A stretch of DNA of 64,000 bases, taken from a virus. Under the pieces are notes generated by a model. That model was not told where the DNA came from and made no database searches. It worked only from the letters and a program-made list of their open reading frames with translations. Below, one piece after another: positions 41,324 through 58,484 of this stretch (position 1 is its first letter; each line of letters begins with the position of its first letter). Made by a program: the position numbers and the translations under genes. The DNA is taken from positions 1 through 64,000 of IMG/VR virus record IMGVR_UViG_3300045836_000088; one strand, 5' to 3'.

Positions 41324-41325
41324 AA

Positions 41326-41925: not shown

Positions 41926-41946
41926 ATAATTTCGCTCTGTCTATAC

Positions 41947-41990
41947 CAAAATTACCCCTTAAAAACACGTGATTTTGAGCACTACATTTG
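41947..41990. promoter_or_regulatory. overlapping divergent promoters of the late motif class
   Basis: Minus GCTCAAAA-N18-TAATTTTG; plus CCTTAAAA-N18-TACATTTG. Confidence 0.6.
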
Positions 41991-42023
41991 GTGTAGATTA
42001 ATCACTTTAAAAAGTAAAAAGTC

Positions 42024-42254
42024 ATGGCGAATTTTATTCAGGTTACAGTTTATCAGGATTTAGACGGAAATGCAGTAGCGGGTGTTGCCCGTCAGCTTGC
42101 AGTTAAAAATTGCTTTCAGTTTATTCCTGACACCAGTGTTGCAAATGCTAACACGCGTATTGAGGTTCTTTACAACAAAGACAATGCGTTAAAGTCAGGA
42201 AGGTTGTATGTATCAGAAGCGGCAACTGCATTGACTACTGCCGCAAACACCTAA
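42024..42254 (+). CDS. small hypothetical protein, possibly virion-associated
   Basis: Own promoter and terminator. Confidence 0.7.
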   Translation: MANFIQVTVYQDLDGNAVAGVARQLAVKNCFQFIPDTSVANANTRIEVLYNKDNALKSGRLYVSEAATALTTAANT

Positions 42255-42297
42255 ATTGGTTTTTTAATAGGTTGATTTATGTTTAATTAGGGGAAAG

Positions 42298-42362
42298 GCC
42301 GCTGTAAAAAGCGGCTTTTTTGTTGTAATAAAAAAGCACGTGCCAATCGGTTACGTGCTTTT
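42298..42362. terminator. two terminators between convergent genes
   Basis: GCCGCT/AGCGGC+T6; AAAAAGCACGT/ACGTGCTTTT. Confidence 0.65.
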
Positions 42363-42389
42363 AATATATAATGGAGAGTTTGAGTGCTA

Positions 42390-42683
42390 TTAAATAGTTG
42401 GGAATCCAGCTTTGCCGATATAAACCCAAAGACTTTGCGGCGCAACTACGCTTCCTGCTTCAACGCCTTGATCTTTAAGTTCAGGGTGGTTTTCAATATC
42501 GCTTTCAGTGATAACATACACTTCTGCTGTAGCTGCTTTTTCTTTTGATACCGAAGCTTCGTTATGAACTACTGGTTCGTTTAATGGTGCTTGTTCTGGT
42601 TGTTGTGTCTCGATTGCTGCCTGAGTTTCAACAACTGGGGGTGTGCTTTCTGGAGCTTGTGTTCCTTGTTCTGTATTTTCCAT
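42390..42683 (-). CDS. acidic low-complexity hypothetical protein
   Basis: 97 aa ORF. Confidence 0.65.
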   Translation of the reverse strand: MENTEQGTQAPESTPPVVETQAAIETQQPEQAPLNEPVVHNEASVSKEKAATAEVYVITESDIENHPELKDQGVEAGSVVAPQSLWVYIGKAGFPTI

Positions 42684-42777
42684 AATTACTACTTGATTTT
42701 TTTATAAAAGTAGATAATAAAAAACCCCGCTTTTGGCAGGGCTTCATTGTTAGAAATATATGATAGAGATGAATAAT

Positions 42778-42948
42778 TTAAGTGTTTTTGGGTGCTGAAT
42801 TGATGCCATGTTCAAGTTTTTCAATCTCTTGATTCTTATACATTATCATAAGCATAATCACATCTTCATTTCGAAACACACCATCATTATATTGCCATTC
42901 TTTGGCTTTTTGATCTAAATACCAATTTATCATTTCTTGTGGTTTCAT
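42778..42948 (-). CDS. small hypothetical protein (56 aa, not in ORF track)
   Basis: Manual translation MKPQEMINWYLDQKAKEW...; leader carries AACCGCTAAAAACC motif. Confidence 0.55.
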   Translation of the reverse strand: MKPQEMINWYLDQKAKEWQYNDGVFRNEDVIMLMIMYKNQEIEKLEHGINSAPKNT

Positions 42949-42975
42949 GTTTTTTTGGTTTTTAGCGGTTATAAT

Positions 42976-43782
42976 TTAATTAAGAGCATTATTTACTACC
43001 ATTTCATCACTCGCCTCATCACCCCATGCAGTAACGATCAAATATCCACTTACACCGTTATCATGGACTATTGGGTATAATACTACAGGGTCAGGAATCT
43101 CTTTTATTAACTTATGCCCCTCTTGCTTATAGCCTTTCATATCCATATCTTTAATTGGGGCGCATATGAACAATTTTGGAGTTCCTTCTATACAATAATA
43201 AGAATTACCTATACCATTACCTCTCAGATCGTTTTTAAGTTGAATATAACTTTCATAATGTTCTTTCGTAATTAACTTTCGGTCACCAAATCCGAAACTC
43301 ACATAATAACAACTTTTAAGATCAGGATGAGAATTATAAAACTGCTCTATTTGAGTTAAGTTTTTAGCTGGAACAAAGCCCTTATATTGGCTTACTTCAC
43401 CAAGCACTAGGTTGTATTTTTCACAAATCTTTTTTGCTATTTCTTCAGAAACGAACTTATAATTTGGATATAGTATTTTATAATCACTTACTACTTGACT
43501 TATATTTTTTTGTTCTTCAGTGGCTTTTTTAAATTCATTTAGGCTTACCACTTCTTTCGTCGATGTAAACCCAAATTCATTCAGCTTATTTGCCTTTTCT
43601 TGATTTGATAAGGTTATACTAGATAGTATATTATTAGCTGATGCAAGTAATTTATCACCAGCAGTCATAAATTCGTTATGAATTTCCTGAACTTCTTTAG
43701 GGTATGTATTTGATACAACTTCCATTGCATCAGTTTCTAACTCTGATTTGGCTTCTGATTTTAAAAAATTAAAAATTTTCAT
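42976..43782 (-). CDS. conserved hypothetical phage protein
   Basis: 268 aa; PDPVVL...YLIVTAWGDEASD. Confidence 0.75.
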   Translation of the reverse strand: MKIFNFLKSEAKSELETDAMEVVSNTYPKEVQEIHNEFMTAGDKLLASANNILSSITLSNQEKANKLNEFGFTSTKEVVSLNEFKKATEEQKNISQVVSDYKILYPNYKFVSEEIAKKICEKYNLVLGEVSQYKGFVPAKNLTQIEQFYNSHPDLKSCYYVSFGFGDRKLITKEHYESYIQLKNDLRGNGIGNSYYCIEGTPKLFICAPIKDMDMKGYKQEGHKLIKEIPDPVVLYPIVHDNGVSGYLIVTAWGDEASDEMVVNNALN

Positions 43783-43810
43783 GTGTTTAGTTTTTTTGAC
43801 GGTTATTTAA

Positions 43811-44509
43811 TTATTGCGCTACTGCTACTGGCTCTCCCCATAAAGATAGTTGGCTATCATCATTCTTTGCTGACTTCTTGCGCCTAATATGAACTACTTT
43901 GCATTCTTCCTGTTCTTCAATAGCTTTTACTAAGCTTAAAGTATCATCTGAGAAATAAATATTGGCACTGATTACATTTCCTTGCTCATCTGTATTCTTG
44001 GATGATGTTATTTTAAATTGTCGCTCAGTATCGTACTTGTCTGTTGTATTTACTTCCAGTTCGCCAAACTTATCATTGCTGAAAACAATCTCGTCTAAAT
44101 TTTCGTGATCTATCAGCATCGCAATGTTCATCTTATTGATAAGCTCGTTTGGATGATAGCCAAAACGAGTTGCGGCTTCGTAATTGCAATCTTTGATTAA
44201 TCCTAACGGAGATATTGTAATGGTAGGCTTTTGTTGTTTACCCAACTTATAAGTGATGTTATTTGGTAAATCAAAGTTGACAATCATCTTTTTGATGTCA
44301 GACATGTTAGCTTTACGTTTAATGGCTTTTGCTGCCTCATTACCTACATTACGTAGTGTAACTTCAAGCATGTGAGCATACATCGAATAGAGGATGATTG
44401 TTAAATCTTTTGCTTCCTCTTTGTTGTCTACTGACATATATTCTATCACCGCTGCTTTGAACTCAGGGTGAATTAGCGCATCTAAAATGGTTCTCCTAAT
44501 AGTTCTCAT
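43811..44509 (-). CDS. PAS-domain protein
   Basis: ITISPLGLIKDCNYEAATRFGYHPNELINKMNIAMLI...DEQGNVISANIYFSD matches PAS consensus. Confidence 0.65.
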   Translation of the reverse strand: MRTIRRTILDALIHPEFKAAVIEYMSVDNKEEAKDLTIILYSMYAHMLEVTLRNVGNEAAKAIKRKANMSDIKKMIVNFDLPNNITYKLGKQQKPTITISPLGLIKDCNYEAATRFGYHPNELINKMNIAMLIDHENLDEIVFSNDKFGELEVNTTDKYDTERQFKITSSKNTDEQGNVISANIYFSDDTLSLVKAIEEQEECKVVHIRRKKSAKNDDSQLSLWGEPVAVAQ

Positions 44510-44602
44510 CGTTTTTGGGTGTTAAGTTGTTTTTGTTAGTATAAATTTAGGGATAAGTATTTGGTATTTAGGCTATTGTTCAAAAATAGGAGATTTCAAC
44601 AG

Positions 44603-44959
44603 TTAGCTATGAATACCATGTGCAAGCCTGCCTTCGCTAACATTCCTTTCCAATAACCACTTCTCAATCTTATCAGCATTCTGCAAGAGTTCTTGGCATG
44701 TTTGGTTAGGAAGTTTACCGGCCTGATCTAACGCTATCAGTCGGTAATCAACTTTTAGTTTATTAATAGGTGGCAAAAAAGCTAACTCATCTAATAGTAT
44801 ATGTTTATCTTTCCTACCATCATAGCTTTTCTCAGATTGTTGAGATAAAGAATCTATTGAGCTTCTTTGGTAATTATTTGCTTGTAAATTATCTTCTGCT
44901 TTCATTTTTTTTAAAATTTTATCTTGTTTAAATATTAACCATAAAGTGCCCAATGCCAT
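44603..44959 (-). CDS. hypothetical protein with N-terminal hydrophobic patch
   Basis: 118 aa, operon packing. Confidence 0.6.
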   Translation of the reverse strand: MALGTLWLIFKQDKILKKMKAEDNLQANNYQRSSIDSLSQQSEKSYDGRKDKHILLDELAFLPPINKLKVDYRLIALDQAGKLPNQTCQELLQNADKIEKWLLERNVSEGRLAHGIHS

Positions 44960-44961
44960 AA

Positions 44962-45336
44962 TCAGATAATTTTTAAGTCGTTTTCAATTTCTGCTATTTG
45001 TTGTTTAAAATCCTTGTCGGAGTAAATTAGGTCTTCAACTGTTTGAATACCGTAGATCACTGTTGAATGGTTCTTTCCTCCTAATTTCTCACCTATTGCT
45101 GCCAAGCTCATTTTAGTATACTTATCAAGAAAGTACATTGCTATTTGCCTTGCTTTTACTATCTCACGCTTGTTTGTTTTTTCTGATATTTTAAGCGGAC
45201 TTATCTTGTAATAGTTGCATACTACGTATACTATCCAATTGGCATTTTGCAATTTAAAGTCGTGTTGAATGGTATCATGTAACCCTACAAAAATTTCAGG
45301 GCTTATCATTTCTTTTACTGGTGCTTGTGCTATCAT
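44962..45336 (-). CDS. DnaA C-terminal (domain IV) HTH protein
   Basis: VKARQIAMYF...SLAAIGEKLGGKNHSTVIYG. Confidence 0.88.
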   Translation of the reverse strand: MIAQAPVKEMISPEIFVGLHDTIQHDFKLQNANWIVYVVCNYYKISPLKISEKTNKREIVKARQIAMYFLDKYTKMSLAAIGEKLGGKNHSTVIYGIQTVEDLIYSDKDFKQQIAEIENDLKII

Positions 45337-45662
45337 TTTGAATTTCTTATGGCAATCAACTTGCCGTTAACATATAGTTCCTGATATTTCTCTGATCTGT
45401 AGCCTACCGTACTTAGGTTTTTAATTTGTCCTTTCTTTGTTTCTTCTGCCCAAGCAAAGAAGCAGGGAGCTATAAAACCTAATTTTTTAACGTAACGGTA
45501 GTCATTGGTAAATTCATAGTCGTAGTTTCCTTCATCTATAAACTCCTTTACTGTTTTTATAAATCGTTCTCTTAATTCTTCTTTTTCGATTAAGTGCGTA
45601 TCTAAAAGCTGGCCGGGAGTTAGTTTATGAAGTTGGGCATAGACCTTTTCTTTAAAGGTCAT
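45333..45662 (-). CDS. hypothetical protein
   Basis: ATGA overlap coupling. Confidence 0.65.
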   Translation of the reverse strand: MTFKEKVYAQLHKLTPGQLLDTHLIEKEELRERFIKTVKEFIDEGNYDYEFTNDYRYVKKLGFIAPCFFAWAEETKKGQIKNLSTVGYRSEKYQELYVNGKLIAIRNSK

Positions 45663-46522
45663 GTGGTAAGTGATTTTAGCAATTCTTTAGCTATTGCTCG
45701 TACGACTGGTTCACTAACGCCATTGCCACATAGTTTATAACGCCGGCCATCGCTTAACTCCTTTACTAGTCCATTGAATTTTCCATACTTTGTCCAGTTG
45801 TCCGGCAATCCCTGTAAGCGTTCGCATTCTATAGGGGTGCACTCTCTTATTCTTCCATCTGTGGTTACTATGAATGTCCCGTTCCAATTCGAGTACTGTC
45901 TTGCCCTTTGTGTAAGTGCAACATTGTAAGTTTCTTTCTCAATCTCTCCGAATCCGATACAAACTCCGACTTCTTCTCCGAAAGGAAATACTTGTCTGCT
46001 ACCTGATCCTCTAAGATGTCCGACAAAGTATAACCGCTCTCTATTTTGGGGTAGAAACCAGCGTGTATTAAAAAGCTGCATTTCAATGTCGTATTGTGGA
46101 CAACTTTCATTAAGGTAGGCGAGTACTTCAAGGCTTTCAATGATGTCAATTCCTTCATTGACAGAGAGCAGCCCGTGTACGTTTTCAGCAACGAAATTCC
46201 GAGGTTTAAATTTGTTGATGATTTTAACTGCCTCGTACAATAAGCCGCTTCGTGTACCTTCTCGTTGTCCTTTGCGCTTTCCAGCAATGCTGTTATCCTG
46301 GCAAGGCCATCCGAAAGTAAAGAGGTCAAGTTCTTTGATAATTCCGGTAGAGCAAATAGTGTCGATTGATCCTGCATAAATTGAGTTTGGGAAATTGTAA
46401 CTGTAGTTAGCTATTGCATACTTATCTATTTCTGAGAAATAACAGGTATCAAACTTCCATCCTGCGTTCTCAAAGCCTAAATGGAATCCTCCGTAACCTG
46501 AAAATCCGTCTAAGTAATTCAT
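45659..46522 (-). CDS. DNA cytosine-5 methyltransferase
   Basis: FSGYGG (I), GWPCQ (IV), ENV (VI), QNRER (VIII), ECERLQGLP (IX), GNGV (X). Confidence 0.93.
   Translation of the reverse strand: MNYLDGFSGYGGFHLGFENAGWKFDTCYFSEIDKYAIANYSYNFPNSIYAGSIDTICSTGIIKELDLFTFGWPCQDNSIAGKRKGQREGTRSGLLYEAVKIINKFKPRNFVAENVHGLLSVNEGIDIIESLEVLAYLNESCPQYDIEMQLFNTRWFLPQNRERLYFVGHLRGSGSRQVFPFGEEVGVCIGFGEIEKETYNVALTQRARQYSNWNGTFIVTTDGRIRECTPIECERLQGLPDNWTKYGKFNGLVKELSDGRRYKLCGNGVSEPVVRAIAKELLKSLTT
45868..46377 (-). CDS. overprinted ORF inside methyltransferase, M.EcoHK31I beta-like subunit candidate
   Basis: ATG start, 169 aa, TLSDILEDQVADKYFLSEK motif typical of C5-MTase variable regions. Confidence 0.55.
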   Translation of the reverse strand: MQDQSTLFALPELSKNLTSLLSDGLARITALLESAKDNEKVHEAAYCTRQLKSSTNLNLGISLLKTYTGCSLSMKELTSLKALKYSPTLMKVVHNTTLKCSFLIHAGFYPKIESGYTLSDILEDQVADKYFLSEKKSEFVSDSERLRKKLTMLHLHKGQDSTRIGTGHS

Positions 46523-46560
46523 ATCTCTGTTAGTATTTAAGTGGTTTTTTGACGGTTTAA

Positions 46561-48489
46561 TTAAAATGGTGGTTCTTGGTCATCTACTTCTCCTAAGTCT
46601 GGAGCAATAATTTTTGAGTTATCATATCCGTAATTGGGTGTTATTTTAAATTCTGTTTGTACTACTCTGCTCGGATCGAATACATTAAATTTAGGCTTAT
46701 AGAACTCACTATTTTCGATAGCTTTTTGCATGTAATCAGTTCCGCTAAAAATGAAACGCCTTGTTCTCCTGTTGAAGTTGAACGTGACTGTTCCCTTTCT
46801 GCCTACTATCTTTTGCCTCCTGATTTTCTTGGAATGAAGCTCACACAAATCACTTGACGGATCTACTTGGTGGTTTGGCCTGTTGTAGATTAAAATATTA
46901 TCCATCTTGTTATTCCACATCGCACCATCAGCTATATCAAACACATCAGGGCAAGGGTAATTCCCATGTGCGTCTTTTTTAGCACCTCCTTTTGGATGCG
47001 CCACAATTGAGAAGAATAGGTTATTTTGCTTTGAAAATCTTGCGCAGTCACTAAGAAATGTCTCAAGGTATTTATCAGTTCTGCCACCTGCGCTGCCATA
47101 ATCGTTAGCCAATTGGTTGAATGGGTCTATCACTACCCCTTTTACTTTTTCTTTGATTATAAGCTCTAAAAATCGCTCTTTAATATACTGAGGTGTTGGG
47201 CTTAAGTCTTTTGGGTAGACATAGAATAAATACTTACTGATAAAGTCGTATGCGTTCTCGTAAGCGTCCTGTGAAGGTTGATTTGGATTATCAGGAGTAC
47301 AATCACATCCCAATAGCGTTTCCGTTAAATTGTGGTAAAAATCAACATCCATTTCCTCAGGGGTGAAAAAAGCGTACTTCTCCCCATACATCAAAATGCG
47401 CATAAGAAGTTTCCAACTCCAGAATGAACTTTTACCATAGTTTCCGTAACCAGATAATAGCGTTATTTCACCTGAATTAAACTTGAAAATTGCATCAAGG
47501 TCAGTAACTCCTACCCCCTTGACTGCCTTATATCCATTCCTGTAAATATCTAATGCACCTTCCTTTACGTCCTCGCCAAAGATTACGTCTTTAGGTTTGA
47601 CGTTTAAGTCAACCATTTCCTGAGTGATCTCAATTTCTTTTCGTAAGGTTTTGTCTACCAGTACATCCTTATCGAATTGAGCCGAACCAAATAGGTTTTT
47701 ATTGGATTTGTAGGCACTTTTAATCGTGGTGGCACATTCATGCTCTGAAAACTTATTTGCGCCTATATCGAAGTTATTTTGGATAAATCCGTAGGTAACT
47801 TCTTCTTCAAGACCAAACCTACAACAAGCGGAAGCTAACTTGAAAATGAAAATATTGCGTTCCCCTGTTACAAAGGCATCACCCTTATTGGTTAGCCATG
47901 TTACAATTTTGTCGAATATTTGAGCCTCGTTAGCTAACGTTTGCTTTACCTCAACCTTTTCAACAACTTTTACTTTGGTGAATACTTTTGCTGACTTGTT
48001 GATGTAAATTTCAGGGTCGTAGCTCTCGTAGCATACACGGCTTTCATTGGAACCGCTTTTATCAGCATCGGTGAACATTTCACATAATGCTTCAAAGTGT
48101 TGCCTGTGTTGTTTACCGTCCGCTATTTTGACAAGCATTTTTACGCCGTTGTTGCGTGGAGAAATCCAGCAAGCGTAAGCGTATTCTGATTCGCACAACT
48201 GTTTTTTCCGGCTTTCAGCGTCAAATATGTTATCGAAGTCAAGTATGATAAATCCGCTGTGCTTGATAAGGAGTTCATCTTTTCGCTCATTGAACTCACC
48301 GGAGAAACATACGCTTGGCAATCCACGCTTCAGGCTGTCTTGCCTTTCCTTGTCCAAGTAGGAACGAATTTCAGTTATGGTGGCTTTACTTGCCCCTTTC
48401 TTGATACGCTCTAAAGCCTTGTCAATTGGGATATGAAAAGCTTGCTTATCGTAAATATTTTTGAATATCGTGCATTTCATAGCTACCAC
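46561..48489 (-). CDS. primase-helicase (VirE/BT4734-like N-terminus, PriCT, SF4-type helicase)
   Basis: LPSVCFSGEF, ILDFD, GERN...FKLA, SGYGNYGKS Walker A, VVIDPFN, IVAHPK. Confidence 0.82.
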   Translation of the reverse strand: MVAMKCTIFKNIYDKQAFHIPIDKALERIKKGASKATITEIRSYLDKERQDSLKRGLPSVCFSGEFNERKDELLIKHSGFIILDFDNIFDAESRKKQLCESEYAYACWISPRNNGVKMLVKIADGKQHRQHFEALCEMFTDADKSGSNESRVCYESYDPEIYINKSAKVFTKVKVVEKVEVKQTLANEAQIFDKIVTWLTNKGDAFVTGERNIFIFKLASACCRFGLEEEVTYGFIQNNFDIGANKFSEHECATTIKSAYKSNKNLFGSAQFDKDVLVDKTLRKEIEITQEMVDLNVKPKDVIFGEDVKEGALDIYRNGYKAVKGVGVTDLDAIFKFNSGEITLLSGYGNYGKSSFWSWKLLMRILMYGEKYAFFTPEEMDVDFYHNLTETLLGCDCTPDNPNQPSQDAYENAYDFISKYLFYVYPKDLSPTPQYIKERFLELIIKEKVKGVVIDPFNQLANDYGSAGGRTDKYLETFLSDCARFSKQNNLFFSIVAHPKGGAKKDAHGNYPCPDVFDIADGAMWNNKMDNILIYNRPNHQVDPSSDLCELHSKKIRRQKIVGRKGTVTFNFNRRTRRFIFSGTDYMQKAIENSEFYKPKFNVFDPSRVVQTEFKITPNYGYDNSKIIAPDLGEVDDQEPPF

Positions 48490-49214
48490 TCGTTGTTTGC
48501 TAAAGGTTGATGTTGGCTTTGTTTATTTTCGAAAAGAGGAACCACCACAACTTCATCATTCCAGCATTCACCGTTAAGCCAAGTCAAAGGATTTTTTCGA
48601 AATTTCAATTCAGGAGTTTTTGCAATGTAGGCGGGCAGCACAGTAAGTATTTTTTCATGCAACTTCTCGTCAATACTTACCCACTTTTTTTCGCACTTGC
48701 GCCTGTCTTCTTTCTTCCCATACATTTCCCAAAAAGTGTCGAAAGACGCAAGTATATGTTTCTTTGTTTCTTTGTTTATTTGTTTATAAGAGTGTCCGCT
48801 TACAAGGGTATCTACCGATCCGCTTACTGATCCATCTACAAGGCCGTCTACCGTTTCTTTACCAGTCCAATTATCGGATAAGTAAGTTAGGCTCTTATCA
48901 AGGCATCCATTAGATAAAATTCTATTATTGATAATGGAAATTACAGTTGGTTTATGTCTGTTATCGGATTTGAATATTATAGATACAAATCCGAACTCAA
49001 CTAATTCGTTTAGTGCCTTCCATACTGTTTTTCTGTTGTTACATCCGCAGGCTGCACAAGCATCATCAGTATTAAAATTGAACTTTTCAGAAAAGCCTTT
49101 ACGGTTATTAATTTCTATCAACCACATATACAAGCATCCCTGCATGGGGGTTACTTTTTCAGGGTTTTCAAAAGCAAAGTCAAACCACTGTCTTGATAAT
49201 AGATATCCATTCAT
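48483..49214 (-). CDS. phage replication initiator (lambda O/DnaD-like)
   Basis: N-terminal wHTH (ALNELVEFGFV), linker repeats, FDTFWEMYGKK...PLTWLNGECWNDE C-terminus; upstream of helicase. Confidence 0.75.
   Translation of the reverse strand: MNGYLLSRQWFDFAFENPEKVTPMQGCLYMWLIEINNRKGFSEKFNFNTDDACAACGCNNRKTVWKALNELVEFGFVSIIFKSDNRHKPTVISIINNRILSNGCLDKSLTYLSDNWTGKETVDGLVDGSVSGSVDTLVSGHSYKQINKETKKHILASFDTFWEMYGKKEDRRKCEKKWVSIDEKLHEKILTVLPAYIAKTPELKFRKNPLTWLNGECWNDEVVVVPLFENKQSQHQPLANNEW
48757..48853. repeat. putative replication origin: five degenerate 12-bp iterons plus T-rich 8-bp repeats
   Basis: gtccgcttacaa/gggtatctaccg/atccgcttactg/atccatctacaa/ggccgtctaccg at 48794-48853; TGTTTCTT-type repeats adjacent. 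Confidence 0.5.
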
Positions 49215-49249
49215 ACTTACGTTTTGTAAAAGCGTTAAAGACAAAAAAA

Positions 49250-49414
49250 TTAAGCTGATAACTTTATGAATTGCTTGCCGGAAATTACAACTACTTTCAA
49301 TTGCTTTTCTTTGTCTGCTATCCAGTTGTAAACTGTTTGTCTTGTTACGCCTTGCTTTTTGGCATAGTCAGTAATGGAGTAGAGTTTTGTGATGTCTTGT
49401 TTAACCTGTTCCAT
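49250..49414 (-). CDS. excisionase/AlpA-like small HTH protein (54 aa, not in ORF track)
   Basis: Manual translation MEQVKQDITKLYSITDYAKKQGVTRQTVYNWIADKEKQLKVVVISGKQFIKLSA. Confidence 0.75.
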   Translation of the reverse strand: MEQVKQDITKLYSITDYAKKQGVTRQTVYNWIADKEKQLKVVVISGKQFIKLSA

Positions 49415-49444
49415 AAAAATGTCTTCTGTATCTGTTTGTTAAAT

Positions 49445-49480
49445 CAAAGTTAGTAACAAAATCAAGGGACACAATACTAT
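49445..49480 (-). promoter_or_regulatory. promoter of xis/replication operon overlapped by a 17-bp attP arm-site copy
   Basis: TTG-N19-TAACTTTG; 49464-49480 is the reverse complement of 14480-14496. Confidence 0.65.
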
Positions 49481-49647
49481 ATTCTCAAATCATGGCACGA
49501 AAGTTATCAACATTGAGCCAAAAGCCTATTTGTATATAATTATAAGCACTTTTGTATACTAAATAAAACAAAAAAATTCTAGAAACATGGATATTATACA
49601 AGAGAAAGTAGACACAGATAGTGTATATACCGAACAGTTATTGCACG

Positions 49648-49763
49648 AAAAAAACCCCACGACAACCAAATCGTGGGGGCAAATACTTTATGGGAACCAC
49701 CCCATGAAGTTAACCGCCAAAAACCCTTAAATACTATGTGAAGTAATCAGATGGGAATTGGTA
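49648..49763 (-). ncRNA. candidate trans-acting small RNA
   Basis: TATATTTG at 49767-49774, terminator CCCCACGA/TCGTGGGG+U7, body complementary to several gene leaders. Confidence 0.5.
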
Positions 49764-49813
49764 CAACAAATATATACTTTGTACAAATATTTTAATACAC
49801 AAGGTAAATTCTT

Positions 49814-50101
49814 TTGTTAAATTCGATTATGGAACTAAAGGAACAAATAAGAAATACAATAAATGTTCTTACCAAGTTATTAGAGCGTCTTGAGAACGAT
49901 GGAGTACCTCATAATCTCCAGAAACGAAAAACAAAAAAGCAGCAACAATATGATACTGAAAATGAATTTACTAATGTTTTAAATAGCAAAAGAATAAAAA
50001 AAGTCGAAGACGAATGTGAACTTCTGAGGAGAAGAATTTTAAACCAAGAGGAGTATGAGTACTATTTAGAAAGAAAGAACAAACCACAGCAAGCTATCTA
50101 A
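49814..50101 (+). CDS. hypothetical protein (likely ATG 49829), paralogous to 15876-16121
   Basis: LNQEEYEYYL...AI motif. Confidence 0.6.
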   Translation: MLNSIMELKEQIRNTINVLTKLLERLENDGVPHNLQKRKTKKQQQYDTENEFTNVLNSKRIKKVEDECELLRRRILNQEEYEYYLERKNKPQQAI

Positions 50102-50144
50102 AACCGCCAAACCAACCAAATACTATTTACTTATAGAAAATATT

Positions 50145-50173
50145 AAAGCCTCCAGTAAAAAAGGAGGCTTTTT
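50145..50173. terminator. bidirectional terminator
   Basis: AAAGCCTCC/GGAGGCTTT. Confidence 0.65.
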
Positions 50174-50196
50174 CAGTTAATGTATGTGAGTGATTA

Positions 50197-50772
50197 TTAT
50201 TCGCCAGCTAACGGATCATCGTCGTCATCTTCAAACTCATTGTTCTTTCCGTAATGCTCTCCTAAGTTATCTTTAGGAACAGGCTTTAAAGTAAATCCCG
50301 CTTTTTTAACTTTATTGTCAATAATATCACCGAGTGGGTCTGCCATTTCACCAATATGATTATTGAACGCTATTTGCTCATCAGTTTCTTCATCTGTGCC
50401 GGTAAAGTCCATGCGTTTCTGATAATCGCTTGGATGAAAGGGCTCACGTTTTAATTGTTCACCATTCTGCTTATCAAGATACACGCGCTCGTTAGTAGTA
50501 AAGTCAAGGTAAAGTTCCGCTGTCTTGTCTATAAACGCATAGCCATTTGTAATGTAGCCTGAGTTTAATTTAATCTCAGCTTGCAGCTTATCGATACGGT
50601 TTTTGTATTCAGAAGCGATAGCCTTTTTCTCAGCTTCGATTTCTGACTTATCGTTTACTGTTTGTGCAAGGATAGCTGACTTCTGTAAAAGTTCTTCTGG
50701 ACTGAAAATGTGCTTTACGTTAACGGTTACAACGTCAGCTAATAGCTCTAATGTTTGTTCTTGAATTTCCAT
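50197..50772 (-). CDS. hypothetical coiled-coil protein with acidic tail
   Basis: 191 aa ORF. Confidence 0.75.
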   Translation of the reverse strand: MEIQEQTLELLADVVTVNVKHIFSPEELLQKSAILAQTVNDKSEIEAEKKAIASEYKNRIDKLQAEIKLNSGYITNGYAFIDKTAELYLDFTTNERVYLDKQNGEQLKREPFHPSDYQKRMDFTGTDEETDEQIAFNNHIGEMADPLGDIIDNKVKKAGFTLKPVPKDNLGEHYGKNNEFEDDDDDPLAGE

Positions 50773-50833
50773 AATATTTTAGTTTTTGACGGTGATGTAA
50801 ATTTAAGCGTTAGTTGATGTACTTTTTACCGCT

Positions 50834-51202
50834 TTAAATGTGCTTCTCAAGAAATTCTATTTGCTTTACTAGGTCTCTGTAATAATAGTTATTGAACTTA
50901 TCAATAAGTGATCCAGTTTCCCTAAAAACCTTTTCAATATTGAATATTAACCCATCTCCAGCATGAGTATCAACTGTTTTTTGCTGTACCTCAGTATTTG
51001 CAATTACACATTCCTGTGCGTTATCTGGATGCTCACTCCTGTTTAGCTTTAGGCCGATTTCTCGTAATCTATCTGTTGCTTTTACAATATCAACTAAACA
51101 TTGCTCTAGGCACCAGTTTTGACCATTTAGGCTATTTATTTGCCTTTCTAAAACTGTTGGTTCCCTTTGTTCAATTACCCCTTGTACTTTTTGTGTTTCC
51201 AT
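50834..51202 (-). CDS. hypothetical protein
   Basis: 122 aa ORF. Confidence 0.65.
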   Translation of the reverse strand: METQKVQGVIEQREPTVLERQINSLNGQNWCLEQCLVDIVKATDRLREIGLKLNRSEHPDNAQECVIANTEVQQKTVDTHAGDGLIFNIEKVFRETGSLIDKFNNYYYRDLVKQIEFLEKHI

Positions 51203-51207
51203 GTTTT

Positions 51208-51672
51208 TTAGTTATTAAATTTAATATTTGCTTGTTGGTCAGGTAAAGGCAGATTAAGGTTTAGAAAATCCAATGCCCATAACCTGATTTGTTCTGTGAA
51301 CTCCATAAATTCTATTGTTGATAGTTCAGTAGTGCTTCTAACGCGTTTCAATACTTCGCCAGAGCTTGTATCAGCCATTATTTCACCGTTAGCGTCTCTT
51401 ATATCCACTGAAAGGAACTTATGCTTTAAAACGTCTTTAATTACGTCTTTATCCATTCCTGTTTCGTCTGCTATCTCCTGAATATACCAGTGTAATACTG
51501 CATTCTGTGGTAAAGACCTTTTCTTTTTCCTGCTGGCGATAGTAACTGTTACTCGATCACCGTCTTTAAAAGCATTTTTAAGCTCATTGTACACCCATCT
51601 TTCATTAGGGAAGTGCAGTGAAGCATCTTTTCCAGTATGGATGATCTGAGCGTCTAATGTTCTGGTTGGCAT
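51208..51672 (-). CDS. NinB/Orf-like recombination protein
   Basis: KRSLPQNAVLHW...RSTTELSTIEFMEFTEQI. Confidence 0.8.
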   Translation of the reverse strand: MPTRTLDAQIIHTGKDASLHFPNERWVYNELKNAFKDGDRVTVTIASRKKKRSLPQNAVLHWYIQEIADETGMDKDVIKDVLKHKFLSVDIRDANGEIMADTSSGEVLKRVRSTTELSTIEFMEFTEQIRLWALDFLNLNLPLPDQQANIKFNN

Positions 51673-51673
51673 C

Positions 51674-52057
51674 TTAACGCAATGCTAAATAGGTTATTAA
51701 GACTATCACTGCTTGATGCATGAACTGATCCACACCAAATACATACCAGTGGAAGACATTTGCTGGACTTTGAAGTGAAGGGAACCAATAATTCAATTTT
51801 CCTTTTAGCACGTCTATACCACAATGTGTAAACAGCTCTATCTGGCATATTAAAACCCAATAAATAGGGTTTGAGCAAAAGAATATCAATACAAAAGCCA
51901 TTAAGAAGTAATGAACACAAGCGTGTTCAAATATTGGCAGGAATGGTGTGCCTAACTTTTTTGCTTGTAACATATATGGCCTTGATAAATGCGTGTAGTC
52001 TGCTGCCCAATGAGCAATGTTTAATAATATTAGCAGCAATAGTGATTTTTCGTTCAT
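51674..52057 (-). CDS. DUF3307-like membrane protein
   Basis: AHWAADY, HACVH, THCGID, GVDQFMH histidine pattern in TM helices. Confidence 0.75.
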   Translation of the reverse strand: MNEKSLLLLILLNIAHWAADYTHLSRPYMLQAKKLGTPFLPIFEHACVHYFLMAFVLIFFCSNPIYWVLICQIELFTHCGIDVLKGKLNYWFPSLQSPANVFHWYVFGVDQFMHQAVIVLITYLALR

Positions 52058-52296
52058 ATAATTTTATTAATTACTTCTTTAGCTTCTGTTCTTAGTCTGT
52101 TTATTAAATCAGGTGTATTTATACTTTTTGGAATGGTTCCCACATCTATAGATAATCCTAGCGTGTAATTAATTGGAATAACAGTTACACCATGTTCTTT
52201 TAGCTTCTCAATTATGTATTCATTTTCGAATGATAATTGCTGTGCTTGTTCAATAAATACTTGCATAAAAACGCTGTTTAAATAGGCGCTAGCCAA
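52054..52296 (-). CDS. hypothetical protein
   Basis: Operon packing. Confidence 0.55.
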   Translation of the reverse strand: MASAYLNSVFMQVFIEQAQQLSFENEYIIEKLKEHGVTVIPINYTLGLSIDVGTIPKSINTPDLINRLRTEAKEVINKII

Positions 52297-52491
52297 TTAT
52301 TTCTGAAATATATTTTTTGGAGTTGGGTATTCTTCTAAATCAATACAATCACTTAACAGGTCTAAAAAATATTCCTCCCATTGTTCATAAACATGCTTTA
52401 CAGCATCTCTCTCAGTTTGATTGTTACATCTATTCATTAGAACATTACAAACCGTTCCTGCTGCGTGCTCTGCTCTTTCTGATATTGTCAT
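52297..52491 (-). CDS. hypothetical protein
   Basis: Operon packing. Confidence 0.6.
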   Translation of the reverse strand: MTISERAEHAAGTVCNVLMNRCNNQTERDAVKHVYEQWEEYFLDLLSDCIDLEEYPTPKNIFQK

Positions 52492-52494
52492 AAA

Positions 52495-52992
52495 TTATTT
52501 AATTACGTTCTTAGGAAATATTGTTGGCCTATTGCCATTGAATAGGAAATGTGGATTAATCCAGTAGTAACCTTGCTTATACATTGGCGAGAGGTAATTA
52601 GCTCCTAATAGCTCATCTAATGCTGATTTATAGGTATTGTAAGAGCTTACCTTACTTTCTTCCATATACCTTACCCTGTTAAGCCAAAACCAGTCTTTAT
52701 TTACATCTACCTCATATATCACCCATAGTAACAGATCCTTTGCTCTCGGACTTAACTTCACCATTTCAAGCCTTCTCTTACTATCAGAAAATACCTTACA
52801 GAATGGCGCTCTCTCTAACTCCAGTTCCATAGGCAGCATAATTCCTTCTTTATCCCTTTTCCATGCACCATTAACGGGTATCTTATTGACATCTATCTTC
52901 AGGTTAAACAGGAATGGGTTTGTCCCAATCTTCTTTAAGTCTATATCTGGCTTATTATACTTGTTCCCCATTGCGTTAACTAAAATCGTCAA
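52495..52992 (-). CDS. RepL-like winged-helix protein
   Basis: TYKSALDELL...YYWINPHFLFNGNR. Confidence 0.65.
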   Translation of the reverse strand: MTILVNAMGNKYNKPDIDLKKIGTNPFLFNLKIDVNKIPVNGAWKRDKEGIMLPMELELERAPFCKVFSDSKRRLEMVKLSPRAKDLLLWVIYEVDVNKDWFWLNRVRYMEESKVSSYNTYKSALDELLGANYLSPMYKQGYYWINPHFLFNGNRPTIFPKNVIK

Positions 52993-53780
52993 TATATTGA
53001 TGCTATTTCAGGTAGTTGATATGCGCATATTTCCAAATAATTGAAACAATTGCATCTCTTACTATCATCTCATTTTATTGATAGTTCTATTCAAAATATT
53101 GATACCTGATTTTCTGCATTTATGAGCTATTAAGCCACTTTTTAAGCCTCTTACGCGCTTACCATCGATTCGGTATCTATATATACTTTATCCATACCCA
53201 CTTAATGCTAGTTGTTTAATTTTTTTAGAAGGTCTATGACTAGGGACTATCCCCCATAACAAACCACCCTACCCATGCAGAACGAAACGCGAATCCACAG
53301 ACCGGGGTGGGCTGAAAAAAGATTTTGCTTTGAGCTATGAAAGATTAATCCGCCTGGCTGAGAAATGAGAACTAAAGCCGGTGTTGAAAGATTTTACTTT
53401 GAGTGATAGTCCTTGCAGGTTAAGTAAGATCGCTCCTTATATCTCCTTAAAACAAGTGTGCTAAAAGAATAGGTTGGTTATAGGAAGGGTTGAGAGAATG
53501 TTTGGTAGGTGGGATAATCCCCCTCGCACCCTTCGGGCGAAAGTAAAACTTTCAATCCTGACAGAGCTATAATAGTCTATTGATTAGTCATGGTTATCAT
53601 AACATAAAGTTATTAAAGGATAGATTCATTAATGCTTAGAAGTTATAAATGTGTGATAGATAAGGTATTGTTTTGATTAGTATTTCCGCTACGCTTCAAT
53701 ATAGCCTCCGGCGGTATGGTATTTTGTTTTAATGTTGTTATTGTTTATGTTGGTGGGAAATTTTAAATTTTAGACGAGTT

Positions 53781-54170
53781 ATGAAAATTAAAAGCCTTGT
53801 ACCTGTAATTGTTTTGTTGCCATTTATTGGATGTAAGAAAGATAGCGGTAATATATCTGCGCCCATCGATATTACTGTAAGTGGGTTGACTGCGAAGACA
53901 TCAATATCTATTACCGCTGTTGATGAGACGGAGAGTAATAAGCAAGTATTACAGGTTACTAATCAGTATGGTAATACTACATACCACACAGCCATTGTTA
54001 GCGCGGGTGATAAAATTAAAATTACTGTAACTGCAAATATGGATGATAATTTACAAGGTGACGGGGATGGCTCGTTTCAGTTTATGTTTAAAGGGCGTTC
54101 TGTTGGTGGTCATAGCGGACAAATAAACAGGGTTGGATTTACGCAAGATGTGACAGCAATTGCCAATTAA
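53781..54170 (+). CDS. lipoprotein (moron-like)
   Basis: MKIKSLVPVIVLLPFIG-C-KKDS lipoprotein signal. Confidence 0.75.
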   Translation: MKIKSLVPVIVLLPFIGCKKDSGNISAPIDITVSGLTAKTSISITAVDETESNKQVLQVTNQYGNTTYHTAIVSAGDKIKITVTANMDDNLQGDGDGSFQFMFKGRSVGGHSGQINRVGFTQDVTAIAN

Positions 54171-54175
54171 TCATA

Positions 54176-54559
54176 ATGAAAGGGGATTTAAATCTTACAA
54201 TAGCAGGGGTTTTCTTAAAGCTTGTATTACCTGTATGTTTTATACTGAATAATAGTAATTACTATAACATATCATTATACCACTTTATATCTTTATTAGG
54301 GACTTTTTGTTTTTGTATTTCATTTTGGAATGAGATCAAGAGAGAAAATAAATTTTTAATTATTTTATCAATAGTTGGTGTATTGGTTTATCAACCCTTT
54401 TACTCTGTCTTAAAAACAGACACCCTTGCTGGAGATATTATAATAGATAAAATTATCCCTCTCTTTACTATAGCATGGTGTCTGTTGTCGATAATAATAG
54501 ATGCAGCAAGAATAATTAAAGATTACAAAAACCGCGGAAGCCGCACCCGCACCTTGTAA
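54176..54559 (+). CDS. multi-pass membrane protein (moron-like)
   Basis: Four hydrophobic segments, low GC. Confidence 0.7.
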   Translation: MKGDLNLTIAGVFLKLVLPVCFILNNSNYYNISLYHFISLLGTFCFCISFWNEIKRENKFLIILSIVGVLVYQPFYSVLKTDTLAGDIIIDKIIPLFTIAWCLLSIIIDAARIIKDYKNRGSRTRTL

Positions 54560-54581
54560 GCATTTTCGCTTGTTTTTCTAC

Positions 54582-54610
54582 AAAGCCACTATTCGGTAGT
54601 GGCTTTTTTT
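54582..54610 (+). terminator. intrinsic terminator
   Basis: GCCACTA-TTCGG-TAGTGGC followed by T7. Confidence 0.8.
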
Positions 54611-54757
54611 ATTGCCTAAATTTTAGACAAGTCTATTTTATAGAAAATCACCTATTCTATTTAGTTATATACCCAGACTAAATAAGTCTATTCCTATTAG
54701 ATAATCAGCATCCCATATTACTTATAGTTATACCTAACTACATCCCGCCAATCTCAT

Positions 54758-54823
54758 TTTACAAACGTATTGACAAATGTAAAAACATGTGTATATTTGT
54801 TGTGTTGTCTTTACAACTGTAAA
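54758..54823 (+). promoter_or_regulatory. early promoter with ACA-N2-TGTA operators (twin of 15595-15637)
   Basis: 34-bp identity; perfect TTTACA-AC-TGTAAA palindrome at 54810-54823. Confidence 0.75.
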
Positions 54824-55070
54824 TAACAACACCGCTCATTGCTGGTATTGAGCCATAGACCAGAGGCGAGAGATTGAACGCCAAATTTCAATCCGGTTAC
54901 TGTGTCCGATAAACACCTTAAAAAACGAGTGCAGTCTCGGAGGATAACTAAAAGCTGCCGTGAACCTTAAATAGAGTAGTAACGAAACAATCCGGTAAAG
55001 CCTGAAACAAAGCAACGGTAAAAATTAATAGCTAATGTGGCCTATTAATATAATAGACTGTTGCCAGCCA
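54802..55070 (+). ncRNA. structured leader RNA with multiple hairpins and pseudoknots
   Basis: No ORF; at least nine complementary stems found by eye; directly after promoter. Confidence 0.6.
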
Positions 55071-55126
55071 GTAAAGAAACACAGAGCAGCTATTTTAATT
55101 AACTGTCAATAAAACTATTAAACACT

Positions 55127-55342
55127 ATGAACTCACCCATATTAACAGTTAGCCAAATAGAAGAAAGAGCGATAACAACCGATATTAAGGCAGATGAATT
55201 TAAAGAAAACCTTTGGTTTTACCTCTGCTATAATAAGAAAGCAGTTAAAAGCCTTGCCAAAGAATTAAACGTATACCCAACATTAGGTAATGTCAATCAA
55301 GGTCTTTTAGATTATTTCTTCGCTCATGTTGGCATGAATTGA
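55127..55342 (+). CDS. hypothetical early protein
   Basis: First ORF after leader. Confidence 0.65.
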   Translation: MNSPILTVSQIEERAITTDIKADEFKENLWFYLCYNKKAVKSLAKELNVYPTLGNVNQGLLDYFFAHVGMN

Positions 55343-55385
55343 AATTAACTATTTATATTTATCACCCCAAAAAATAAAACACAAA

Positions 55386-55652
55386 ATGAAAACTACAATT
55401 GCTATTACCGGCCAAATCAATGGAAACTTTGCGCTTAAAAACGCAATTGAAACCTATAATTCAGAAACTAAAAAGGGAATGTTTAATAGTTTCAACATTA
55501 CATTTCCTTCCAAAAAAGAAGCTAAAAAAGCACTTTGGGAAGCGTTTAAGTATTTAAGGAGTGATAAACAAGATGCTGAAGCCTCTATGCTATCATATAG
55601 CAAATATGGCTCACTGAGCTACGACGCCTCAAAAGCCGTTATTTTAGATTAA
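55386..55652 (+). CDS. hypothetical early protein
   Basis: 88 aa ORF. Confidence 0.7.
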   Translation: MKTTIAITGQINGNFALKNAIETYNSETKKGMFNSFNITFPSKKEAKKALWEAFKYLRSDKQDAEASMLSYSKYGSLSYDASKAVILD

Positions 55653-55659
55653 TTGTTAT

Positions 55660-56622
55660 ATGGCAACAAGAACACGCTGGACAGACGATCATCGGCAATA
55701 TGTTATTGATAACTATTTTAAACTTCCAGTGGCAGATATAGCTAAGCATTTAGGGAGAACTGAATATAGTATTAGAATATTTGCAAGTCATAATAATTTA
55801 ACTGCTGACAAGCGAGGTAGACCCAGCGGTAAACCTTGGACTGATGAAGAAATTGAAATAGTTAAAAACGTTCAGTTATCAATAAAAGAGGTAGCTAAAG
55901 AAATTAGCCGTACCTATTCCGCAGTTAAAGCTAAAAGGCTATCATTAGGCATAGTTACAGAAAAAAAAGATGTTGACTACTGGAAGCAGGGAGAAGTAGA
56001 TATTTTAAAAAACAATCCTGAACTAACAAATAAAGAGATTGCCGAAATACTAAGACGCACTGAGCAATCAGTACAATTAAAAAGGGCAAGGTTAGGGCTA
56101 AAGGGGCCGTCCGAATTATGGAGTGCAGACGAAATAAAGTATCTTAAAAAATATTATTTCAAGCAATCAAAAAAAGAAATAGCCGATGCTTTAAACAGAT
56201 CAGCAACCGCCGTAATGTCAAAGGCTTATGAATTAGGCATTACTAAAAAAACAGATTATTGGAGCAAGGTAGAAATTCAGATATTAACTGAAAATATACA
56301 GCTGCCAAATATCGAAATATCACGGCTAATAAATAAAACAGCAGATCAAATTGCTTACAAAAAAGCATATCTAAATAGCCGCAAAGGTAATAGGAATAGA
56401 AATGTAACTTTTGAAGAGCTCGAAGATAATGTTCCTCTTGAATACAAGTCAAAAAGCAATAGGTATGCTGATTTACTGGAAGCCATGAATGTAAATCAAT
56501 CATTTGAGTTCCCAACATCTGAAATTCAACATATTCAGGCTGCAAAAAATCTATTCCCTGACAAAATATTTAAGATAAAACCAATAGACGAAACCACAAG
56601 CCGCTTATGGAGACTATATTAA
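55660..56622 (+). CDS. Myb/SANT-like HTH repeat DNA-binding protein
   Basis: Five ~48 aa repeats W(T/S/K)xxE...IAxxLxR(T/S). Confidence 0.75.
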   Translation: MATRTRWTDDHRQYVIDNYFKLPVADIAKHLGRTEYSIRIFASHNNLTADKRGRPSGKPWTDEEIEIVKNVQLSIKEVAKEISRTYSAVKAKRLSLGIVTEKKDVDYWKQGEVDILKNNPELTNKEIAEILRRTEQSVQLKRARLGLKGPSELWSADEIKYLKKYYFKQSKKEIADALNRSATAVMSKAYELGITKKTDYWSKVEIQILTENIQLPNIEISRLINKTADQIAYKKAYLNSRKGNRNRNVTFEELEDNVPLEYKSKSNRYADLLEAMNVNQSFEFPTSEIQHIQAAKNLFPDKIFKIKPIDETTSRLWRLY

Positions 56623-56731
56623 ATAAAAAGTAAATCACAACTCAATAACCAATGCAGCCCGATTGATTGAAATCTTTCGGGCTTTTTTATTTCTAACCGT
56701 CAATAACCAACCACTTAAACAAAACACAATA

Positions 56732-57268
56732 ATGAAAACCTTAACTATTATGGAAACCGCAAAAGTTTATGTAGGAACCTACGCAAAGTATACAAACGGC
56801 TCAATTGCCGGAGAATGGTTAGACCTTTCTGACTATTCAAGCAAAGAAGAATTTCTTGAAGCTTGCGCGGAATTGCACAGCGATGAAGAAGACCCTGAAT
56901 TTATGTTTCAGGACTTTGAAAATATACCTGATGGTTTAATCTGTGAAAGCTGGATAAGTGAGGGCTTTTTTACCTATCAGGAAGTATTAAACGAAATAGA
57001 TAACCCTGAAGCGTTTAAAGTGTTTATTAATCACATGGGTTATGATTTAGCAAAAGAAGACGCTGAAGACCTTAAAGATAGCTTTGAAGATGCTTATTGT
57101 GGCGAATACAATAGCGAATTGGATTATGCCTATGAAATAGCGGACGAAATGATGCCAAGTGACGCGCCTGACTTCTTAACCAGATACTTTGATTACGAAG
57201 CGTTTTGCAGGGACTTGTTTATTAGTGACAATTGGTATGAAGGCGGTTTTGTCTTCCGTAATATTTAA
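56732..57268 (+). CDS. ardA: antirestriction protein ArdA
   Basis: VYVGTYAKYTNGSIAGEWLDL, DPEFMFQDFE, YFDYEAFCRDL; highly acidic. Confidence 0.92.
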   Translation: MKTLTIMETAKVYVGTYAKYTNGSIAGEWLDLSDYSSKEEFLEACAELHSDEEDPEFMFQDFENIPDGLICESWISEGFFTYQEVLNEIDNPEAFKVFINHMGYDLAKEDAEDLKDSFEDAYCGEYNSELDYAYEIADEMMPSDAPDFLTRYFDYEAFCRDLFISDNWYEGGFVFRNI

Positions 57269-57469
57269 TCCACCTCTCCCCCTCTTTAAGCCCTTGCAAA
57301 TAAATAAAGTAAGGGCTTTTATTATTTAAAACCTTAAACGTTATGATCGCCACCTTTTCAGACGGTACAACCCTAACCCTTATAGGGTATAGTTATCTTA
57401 ATGCTTTAGACTTAGTTAAGTCTGTAGCTAATACTTTTAATTTGCAATTCACATACAAGATAAAGTAGC

Positions 57470-57733
57470 ATGGAACAACTTGATAAAGGAACATGGGTGA
57501 AGTATCAGTCAAGATACTATTGTATACAATCTAACGGAAAGTCATCAAAAGGTAACTTGGTTTACAATTGTATTGGTTTGGATGAGATTGTAAAAGGCGC
57601 AAACAACTATGCAATACCTCATAGAATAGCGGCAGAACAAGTTATTATTTTGTCCGATACCGAAAAAGCCAAAATCAAAGAATCTTTATTAAATAAAATC
57701 TCATTTATAAACTCATTTATCGGATCATTATGA
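57470..57733 (+). CDS. hypothetical protein
   Basis: Early gene array. Confidence 0.6.
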   Translation: MEQLDKGTWVKYQSRYYCIQSNGKSSKGNLVYNCIGLDEIVKGANNYAIPHRIAAEQVIILSDTEKAKIKESLLNKISFINSFIGSL

Positions 57734-58005
57734 AAACCAAAGCAACATCCAATTTAAATTTCGTTCAGGACATGGAAGTAGAATTAACGCTTTCAGAAAA
57801 CAAAGCTAATCTAAAATTCAGCACTGGATTTGAGGCCGAATGTATCTTGTTTAATAGTGTTAATGGAATTGATATCTATACTTATCCTTCAAGGAATGGT
57901 GAAACACACTTCCTGCATGTTAGAAAAGTAGATAATGAGTTGTTCTGCCAAACAGTTCAGACCGGGACAAGTCCAGGCGGTAGCACTTTTAGATTTACTC
58001 TTTAA
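57730..58005 (+). CDS. hypothetical protein
   Basis: ATGA overlap. Confidence 0.6.
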   Translation: MKTKATSNLNFVQDMEVELTLSENKANLKFSTGFEAECILFNSVNGIDIYTYPSRNGETHFLHVRKVDNELFCQTVQTGTSPGGSTFRFTL

Positions 58006-58049
58006 TTACAATAACTGTAAATAGTCAGCAAACACAATAAAAATAAGCA

Positions 58050-58481: not shown

Positions 58482-58484
58482 AGT

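Follow-up and report, generated by a model that had tools for sequence, protein, structure and literature searches.

The minus strand of a phage genome carries, at 49648-49774, a short stretch that a first reading of the letters (the sequence-only reading) had taken for the gene of one small RNA repressing translation of a dispersed set of the phage's own genes. The question raised by this locus is whether such a unit exists, and whether pairing of its RNA explains a motif repeated in the leaders of those genes. The window, that is, the whole stretch of DNA analysed (64,000 nucleotides), corresponded to positions 1-64000 of a 72,594-bp virus record, which is complete according to CheckV. As judged from sequence, the source is a temperate soil phage with Bacteroidota-type signals. 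The nearest cultured relatives of its primase were found in phages of Flavobacterium, Cellulophaga, Maribacter, and Tenacibaculum: all below 60% identity (121 records). Bacteroidota mRNAs are described as having no Shine-Dalgarno sequences in an excerpt of a previous study (PMC6847099), and a Bacteroidota-type host fits this phage because the stretches upstream of its start codons were A/C-rich and without Shine-Dalgarno sequences. The genes to which we refer below are as follows:

12873-14177 (minus strand): tyrosine integrase gene
14671-15570: CI/LexA-like repressor with HTH_3 and Peptidase_S24 domains
45659-46522 (minus strand): C5 cytosine methyltransferase, ATG at 46522
46561-48480 (minus strand): primase/helicase of the replication module
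48483-49214 (minus strand): replication initiator of the replication module
49250-49414 (minus strand): 54-aa HTH protein of the replication module
55660-56622: multi-HTH regulator, one of several HTH proteins of the phage
56732-57268 (plus strand): ArdA, ATG at 56732

The Bacteroidota -7 box (TAnnTTTG) occurred 61 times in the genome, and 17 of these 61 boxes were non-coding (non-coding DNA, 7,708 bases, makes up 10.6% of the genome), while at least seven preceded an ATG of the same strand by 21-47 nt. This enrichment in non-coding DNA, together with the spacing to ATGs, made TAnnTTTG usable as a promoter predictor in the phage. As a side observation at the end of the window, the gene at 63708-64523 (numbering of the full record) contains a 6-bp tandem repeat: behind a short N-terminal segment, its product has a long stretch of G-[S/Y/D] dipeptides (GYGSGSGYGSGDGDG...).

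The elements of the proposed minus-strand unit were located as follows:

49767-49774 (minus strand): sigma-A-type -7 box TATATTTG of the candidate sRNA, an exact TAnnTTTG, as a consensus match only
49648-49762 (minus strand): candidate non-coding RNA of ~113-115 nt with three predicted hairpins
49710-49736 (minus strand): anti-motif, complementary to the extended leader motif (27 nt), at positions 27-53 of the predicted RNA
49648-49678 (minus strand): intrinsic terminator, consisting of a stem-loop (49678-49655; 9 bp, 6 of them G-C) and T7

The -7 element, the strong terminator, and a minus-strand RNA of ~115 nt containing the complement of the leader motif had all been claimed in the sequence-only reading, and these claims held. 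The box was one of the 17 intergenic ones, and the next 353 nt contained no ORF start on the same strand. Since the -7 box of Flavobacterium psychrophilum spans -12 to -5 (in an excerpt of PMC9723704), a transcription start at ~49762 was predicted. The terminator ranked first among the terminator-like sites of 41000-58000, and no further minus-strand sigma-A box was found in 49775-50300. The plus strand reads TTAACCGCCAAAAACCCTTAAATACTA at 49710-49736, and the minus-strand RNA would carry its complement. The predicted RNA folded at -37.9 kcal/mol (z = -2.88 versus 200 shuffles), and the longest ATG-initiated ORF in the minus-strand unit was 5 aa (MGWFP). The whole window gave no Rfam match at the gathering score, nor did the minus strand of 49400-50100 match any family even at E-values up to 1.

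Public sequencing runs were compared over 42000-61999, and two of them (X3 and X5) contained mosaic relatives, in which blocks of 90-99% identity are broken by unlike sequence; the figures of run X4 were identical to those of X5, and these are probably the same data, while run X2 possibly represents the source sample. One X5 contig matched 49417-49514, skipped 49515-49642, and matched 49643-49774 (alignment ends are approximate); the sequence flanking the latter block was unlike the phage over at least 160 nt at one end and 255 nt at the other. The read depth in this bin was explained by these pieces. From these limits, the conserved block spans the T-run of the terminator to the -7 box, as seen in one contig of one relative. 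A plus-strand ORF (49587-49730) lacks its start in the same relative, which skips 49515-49642. With the signals read from the sequence and this block in view, we consider it probable that a small, ORF-free transcription unit on the minus strand is real.

More distant relatives were also searched. Relatives of the replication initiator in IMG/VR, GTDB genomes, and JGI metagenomes showed a full-length identity of at most ~40% (local segments, at most ~60%), and none of them carried the motif more than once. No relative of the 191-aa neighbouring protein was found, and a 23-kb megablast query had no match among 50,697 phage records. Exact-pattern scans of IMG/VR returned 0 matches, where one pattern suited solely the methyltransferase copy; a 16-mer scan of IMG/VR returned only contigs with a single match among the matches listed (at least 80 contigs, 111 stretches). 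Seven distant loci (L204, L208, L006, L210, L205, L007, and L008) were screened by k-mers and revealed no analogous repeat; an apparent one in L006 was rejected as coding sequence.

The unit is divergent from an orphan gene, which is flanked by the following features:

49761-49784: dyad GTACAAC-N10-TTTGTAC across both promoter boxes, which are back to back
49775-49782 (plus strand): TACTTTGT, a TAnnTTGY-type box and probable promoter of the plus-strand gene, start at ~49787
49829-50101 (plus strand): orphan 90-aa gene, divergent from the candidate sRNA unit
50100-50125 (plus strand): second extended-motif copy (AAAACCGCCAAACCAACCAAATACTA), 19.1 bits, duplex -24.6 kcal/mol

TAnnTTGY has been described as a promoter motif (SM5; excerpt of PMC9723704). 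The sequence TTGTACAAA of the dyad occurred once in the genome, and the dyad is a possible operator. Neither Pfam nor PHROG had a family for the 90-aa protein, Atlas gave no informative match, and among 5.8 billion proteins one relative was found (62% identity). Because the probable plus-strand promoter lies downstream of the motif copy at 49712, this copy would be outside the plus-strand mRNA; since, in addition, no plus-strand box was found upstream of it in 49300-49710, a role of the 49712 copy in a sense RNA is unlikely. The copy at 50100-50125 is directly 3' of the stop codon of the gene, before a terminator hairpin (50148-50168). This hairpin separates the convergent genes 49829-50101 (plus strand) and 50197-50772 (minus strand), and relatives keep its stem with a rewritten loop (50154-50162).

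The leader motif (TTAACCGYYAAAAAMC) was found 22-23 or 35-37 nt upstream of the ATGs of six early genes, which encode the C5 methyltransferase, ArdA, and four proteins of unknown function. These strong leader copies and further copies are as follows, with the energies of the duplexes described below:

42957-42972 (minus strand): leader motif of a 56-aa gene (ATG 42948), duplex -23.3 kcal/mol
43791-43806 (minus strand): leader motif of a 268-aa gene (ATG 43782), duplex -19.6 kcal/mol
46531-46559 (minus strand): extended leader motif of the C5 methyltransferase, duplex -30.5 kcal/mol, target opening 1.45
50781-50796 (minus strand): leader motif of a 191-aa gene (ATG 50772), duplex -21.8 kcal/mol
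56693-56725 (plus strand; motif 56693-56708): leader motif of ardA, duplex -20.6 kcal/mol
61248-61263 (plus strand): leader motif of a 31-aa hydrophobic ORF (ATG 61273), duplex -23.7 kcal/mol
14286-14301 (minus strand): motif copy in the integrase leader, 18.5 bits, duplex -24.1 kcal/mol
55099-55114 (plus strand): weak copy (AACTGTC) before gene 55127, 15.0 bits
61829-61844 (plus strand): degenerate copy (AACCATC) with the ATG at 61854 23 nt on, 16.0 bits, duplex -14.1 kcal/mol

The distance from AACCG to ATG was 22, 22, 22, and 23 nt for the genes at 42948, 43782, 50772, and 61273, respectively, and 35 and 37 nt for methyltransferase and ardA, whose leaders have a common extension: C(A)CTTAAA(T/C)A. 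The integrase copy is located 122 nt before the ATG in a predicted 352-nt leader (-7 box at 14534-14541). When up to one mismatch was permitted, AACCGYYAAAAA gave 10 matches, and none of 100 shuffles reached this number (mean 2.45, largest 7). A weight matrix trained on eight copies, which therefore match by construction, also found 14299 on the minus strand at 18.5 bits and weaker copies at 55101, 59459, 61831, 58730, and 44523; in total, 20 matches scored at least 10 bits (2-15 in 20 shuffles). The nine copies of at least 18.5 bits were all non-coding and in short spacers of early regions, and every copy, including those at 49712 and 50102, was sense to its nearest gene. C/T was the sole variation in the CCGYY core of the strong copies, in agreement with the core variants named beforehand (GCC, GTC, GCT, and CTGTC). 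Degenerate variants (AACCCCC, AACCATC, AACACCC, and AACTGTC) occupied the same position upstream of other early genes, and degenerate copies preceded the genes starting at 61854, 58753, and 44509. The motif copies that the sequence-only reading had placed upstream of named genes were thus all present and sense to the following gene, and its "61273 peptide" corresponded to the 31-aa ORF with a strong leader copy; the one before 55127 proved weak, and its list had missed those at 50100-50125 and before 61854, 58753, and 44509. An 11-nt match of 49735-49745 to the 15.6-kb switch and CCGCCAA at 54745 were at the level of chance.

The same reading had named a motif equally common in host leaders as an observation that would count against it. 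In 151 Bacteroidota genomes, sampled evenly over the phylum and with the reversed pattern as a control, AACCGYYAAAAAMC gave 70 matches, with at least one in 56 genomes and a maximum of 4 per genome; the 72.6-kb phage alone contained 4 exact copies. Since the counts were near those of the reversed pattern, leaders of the sampled genomes do not have the motif as a generic element: it is phage-specific, and at background level in these 151 genomes. A function of the motif as a promoter was rejected, since it is unlike the -33/-7 elements and without a conserved upstream partner, and one copy is located between a stop codon and a terminator.

Scoring with the full-length RNA (RNAduplex) was non-discriminating (104 of the 110 start regions at -15 kcal/mol or below, versus a shuffle mean of 99), and the 27-nt anti-motif was therefore used instead as a seed against -40 to +10 of the 110 called genes, with 100 shuffled seeds as a control. 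The comparison with shuffled controls, which the sequence-only reading had put forward as a check, came out in favour of pairing. Duplexes of -20 kcal/mol or below were found in 5 of the 110 start regions (shuffled seeds: mean 0.12, maximum 3), and those of -16 kcal/mol or below in 13 (mean 2.8, maximum 7). The five best duplexes were, in order, those of methyltransferase, 61273, 42948, 50772, and ardA (-30.5 to -20.6 kcal/mol). Every strong leader copy contained one G-U, so that pairing is imperfect. The opening cost was 0.4-5.3 kcal/mol for the target sites, and 6.7 kcal/mol (14-nt core) and 12.7 kcal/mol (full 27 nt) for the predicted RNA. In the predicted ensemble, UUU and UUA were open and GGCGG was mostly paired (opening cost of the seed, 6.0-6.7 kcal/mol); the outcome hinges on the exact 5' end. 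In these models, net pairing energies stay favourable, and the seed is not ideally exposed.

The reading that we prefer is as follows. The minus strand of 49648-49774 would be a small non-coding RNA gene of a temperate Bacteroidota phage, transcribed from the sigma-A-type -7 box (start near 49762) and ended by intrinsic termination near 49648. Its product would be an RNA of ~113 nt with three hairpins, in which positions 27-53 are complementary to the motif filling the short spacers before at least six early genes, and also present in the integrase leader and at the 3' end of the divergent gene. This RNA would pair over 14-25 bp with unstructured, A/C-rich leaders, between -27 and ~-9 from the ATG, and thereby block binding of the 30S subunit and repress translation of the whole set, either as an early-gene shut-off or as an immunity function expressed by the prophage. 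To our knowledge, Bacteroidota are a host phylum without Hfq. That one RNA represses a dispersed early regulon is plausible, at somewhat under an even chance. The signals in the sequence, the complementarity with its excess over chance, and the block conservation in one relative were observed directly; transcription of the unit, pairing in vivo, and repression as the effect are inferred.

Of the corresponding claim in the sequence-only reading, the transcription unit, the excess of pairing, and the specificity of the motif were supported. Since 49712 is one more copy of the repeat, complementarity of the opposite strand to the leaders is automatic. The degenerate variants would pair poorly, which suggests that the motif is maintained by a factor other than sRNA pairing, and the fixed motif-ATG distance of 22-23 nt is explicable without an sRNA. 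Given that all copies are sense and that degenerate variants exist, a protein site or a boundary element explains the repeat about equally.

Other features recorded elsewhere in the window are given here for completeness. A near-identical block of ~34-45 bp (GTATTGACAAATGTAAAAACATGTGTATATTTGT) is common to 15595-15660 and 54758-54805, with ATTGACAAAT at 15606, 15646, and 54769, and contigs of run X2 break at this block; it probably represents operators of the CI-like repressor at two distant early promoters. Two minus-strand -7 boxes (54762-54769 and 54774-54781) precede 1.8 kb without a gene on this strand, with terminator-like hairpins at 54606-54582 and 54551-54533; the minus strand of 54525-54781 is thus possibly the source of another small RNA, or of an antisense RNA facing the end of gene 54176-54559. 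A sub-threshold match to the type-P1 twister self-cleaving ribozyme was found at 55029-55092 on the plus strand (38.7 bits; gathering score, 67.2; E = 6e-6 for 5.8 kb and 4e-7 for 0.4 kb), with several consensus positions differing. It is located in the predicted 323-nt leader of a strong promoter (54792-54799), just 5' of gene 55127 and its weak motif copy (55099-55114). Between divergent operons, 52972-53780 comprises 800 bp without an ORF longer than 32 aa and without a canonical -7 box, and is partly G+C-rich; 52495-53703 was ~92-97% conserved in the X3 and X5 relatives. An origin, a structured RNA, or some other regulatory element may lie here.

We regard it as possible, at a chance well below even, that the motif is instead the site of a phage protein, either a stoperator-like DNA site within operons or an RNA operator, and that the complementarity of the minus strand is incidental; the 49712 and 50102 copies would then be further sites around the plus-strand gene, and the small unit may be real all the same. 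The stoperators of cluster A mycobacteriophages (L5 and Bxb1) are the closest likeness: an asymmetric, short, phage-specific motif in many intergenic spacers in one orientation, which consists, as described in an excerpt of PMC6550527, of 20-30 asymmetric 13-bp DNA sites per genome bound by the immunity repressor, mostly off promoters and oriented with transcription, one of them being a promoter operator. Here, too, the motif is asymmetric (14-16 bp), phage-specific rather than generic to the Bacteroidota genomes sampled, and confined in its nine strong copies to short non-coding spacers, sense to the local gene, with graded weaker variants at the same position as in a protein-site consensus, and the phage encodes several HTH proteins that might bind it (e.g., 55660-56622 and 49250-49414). 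However, there are nine strong copies, in early regions only, at a fixed distance from the ATG and with one inside the antisense unit. No copy is on a -7 box or overlaps a predicted early promoter, unlike a true operator (in stoperator systems the motif is the operator of the early lytic promoter), and the 15.6-kb switch and the 54.79-kb promoter have the different common block of ~34 bp that includes ATTGACAAAT. The fixed ATG distance speaks for translation and against a transcriptional roadblock, and the extent of the conserved block, from terminator to -7 box, is left unexplained by a protein site. No homologue of ProQ/FinO or bS21 was found in the phage; a search for RegA also found none, and was uninformative because the positive control likewise matched nothing.

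It is quite improbable that the motif copies merely mark boundaries, as parts of a duplicated intergenic cassette without regulatory function (stop codon, motif, A-rich spacer, and ATG), spread and kept because homologous recombination at these short common sequences reshuffles early-gene cassettes; the 49712 copy would then be the relic leader of a lost gene. Such an origin would account for the ATG at the canonical +24 after 49712, followed at once by TGA, for the two direct copies flanking the plus-strand gene 49829-50101, and for the extension CTTAAATACTA or a near variant in four copies, which suggests duplication. It would also account for the breaks or joints of homology at the motif copies 43793 (in relative X3), 49735, 58734, and 59458, among the matches listed and with approximate ends. 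One relative contig has 23 nt identical to 49713-49735, then 37 other letters, and then 54834 onward; relatives also lack or replace the 40-aa gene at 58753-58875 and most of 58917-59492, and the joints of these intervals (58734-58879 and 58933-59458) at degenerate motif copies indicate that small early genes turn over much like cassettes. In a mosaic phage, however, breaks are to be expected at gene boundaries anyway, and it is at gene boundaries that the motif is located. Furthermore, the 14-16-nt core is kept across unrelated spacers with only C/T variation, implying selection on the sequence, and the promoter and terminator around 49712 have no place in a boundary cassette. Terminated leaders that depend on antitermination, such as the PR'-tR' 6S transcript of lambda and the leader of P4, offer a further comparison, in which the unit would be a cis-acting leader of the replication operon, read through only when antiterminated. 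The unit is on the same strand as this operon, 234 nt upstream of its start at 49414, and its terminator is strong; but the operon has a well-placed -7 box of its own (TAACTTTG, 49445-49452, 31 nt before the ATG), the relative is without the 128 nt between the terminator and the operon promoter, no antiterminator homologue was found among the proteins scanned, and the anti-motif would be unexplained. A cis-acting leader is, thus, very improbable.

Among known regulators, T4 RegA is a translational repressor protein that shuts off many early mRNAs at their initiation regions, and the RNA proposed in the preferred reading resembles it as one regulator over many early mRNAs, but RegA is a protein. 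The sar RNA of P22 and OOP RNA of lambda are classically transcribed opposite their single target, whereas the candidate is encoded away from its putative targets and matched to them via a repeated motif. As given in parts of a recent review (PMC12197685), sar (68/69 nt) and OOP (77 nt) have their own promoter and terminator and repress by base-pairing, and its table files OOP as cis and sar as trans. The same source describes c4 of P1/P7 as a phage RNA of ~77 nt that pairs around the ribosome-binding site of the ant mRNA and blocks translation. The candidate would be like c4 in that a phage RNA acts on mRNA encoded elsewhere; c4 has an immunity function (PMC12197685), which the candidate may share. 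It differs in that c4 has one transcript as its target and the candidate up to ~8-10 dispersed leaders as putative targets, in that its host phylum does not use Shine-Dalgarno sequences, and in that no sequence relation and no Rfam family connect it to c4. In the parts of this 2025 review that concern phage regulatory RNAs (c4, sar, OOP, and others), each has a single target and none is from a Bacteroidota phage; the terms "Bacteroid", "multiple targets", and "anti-restriction" do not occur in it. Nothing comparable was found in the literature searched.

A more elaborate version of the sRNA reading is doubtful: the phage would mark its early genes with its own leader element, one antisense RNA would mask the set, and the copy at 50100-50125 would act as a sponge. 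Within this version, and at the same low level of confidence, the RNA and motif pair, being common to mosaic relatives, could double as an RNA-based immunity determinant. The longest complementarity was found for the anti-restriction pair, ArdA and the C5 methyltransferase. If the sRNA reading is true, a single phage RNA acting on the phage's own dispersed early genes via a common leader would be a new regulatory design, and would provide a handle on the control of translation in bacteria without Shine-Dalgarno sequences and on the timing of phage anti-restriction functions. If the motif is a protein site, it would represent a stoperator-like system outside the actinobacteriophages.
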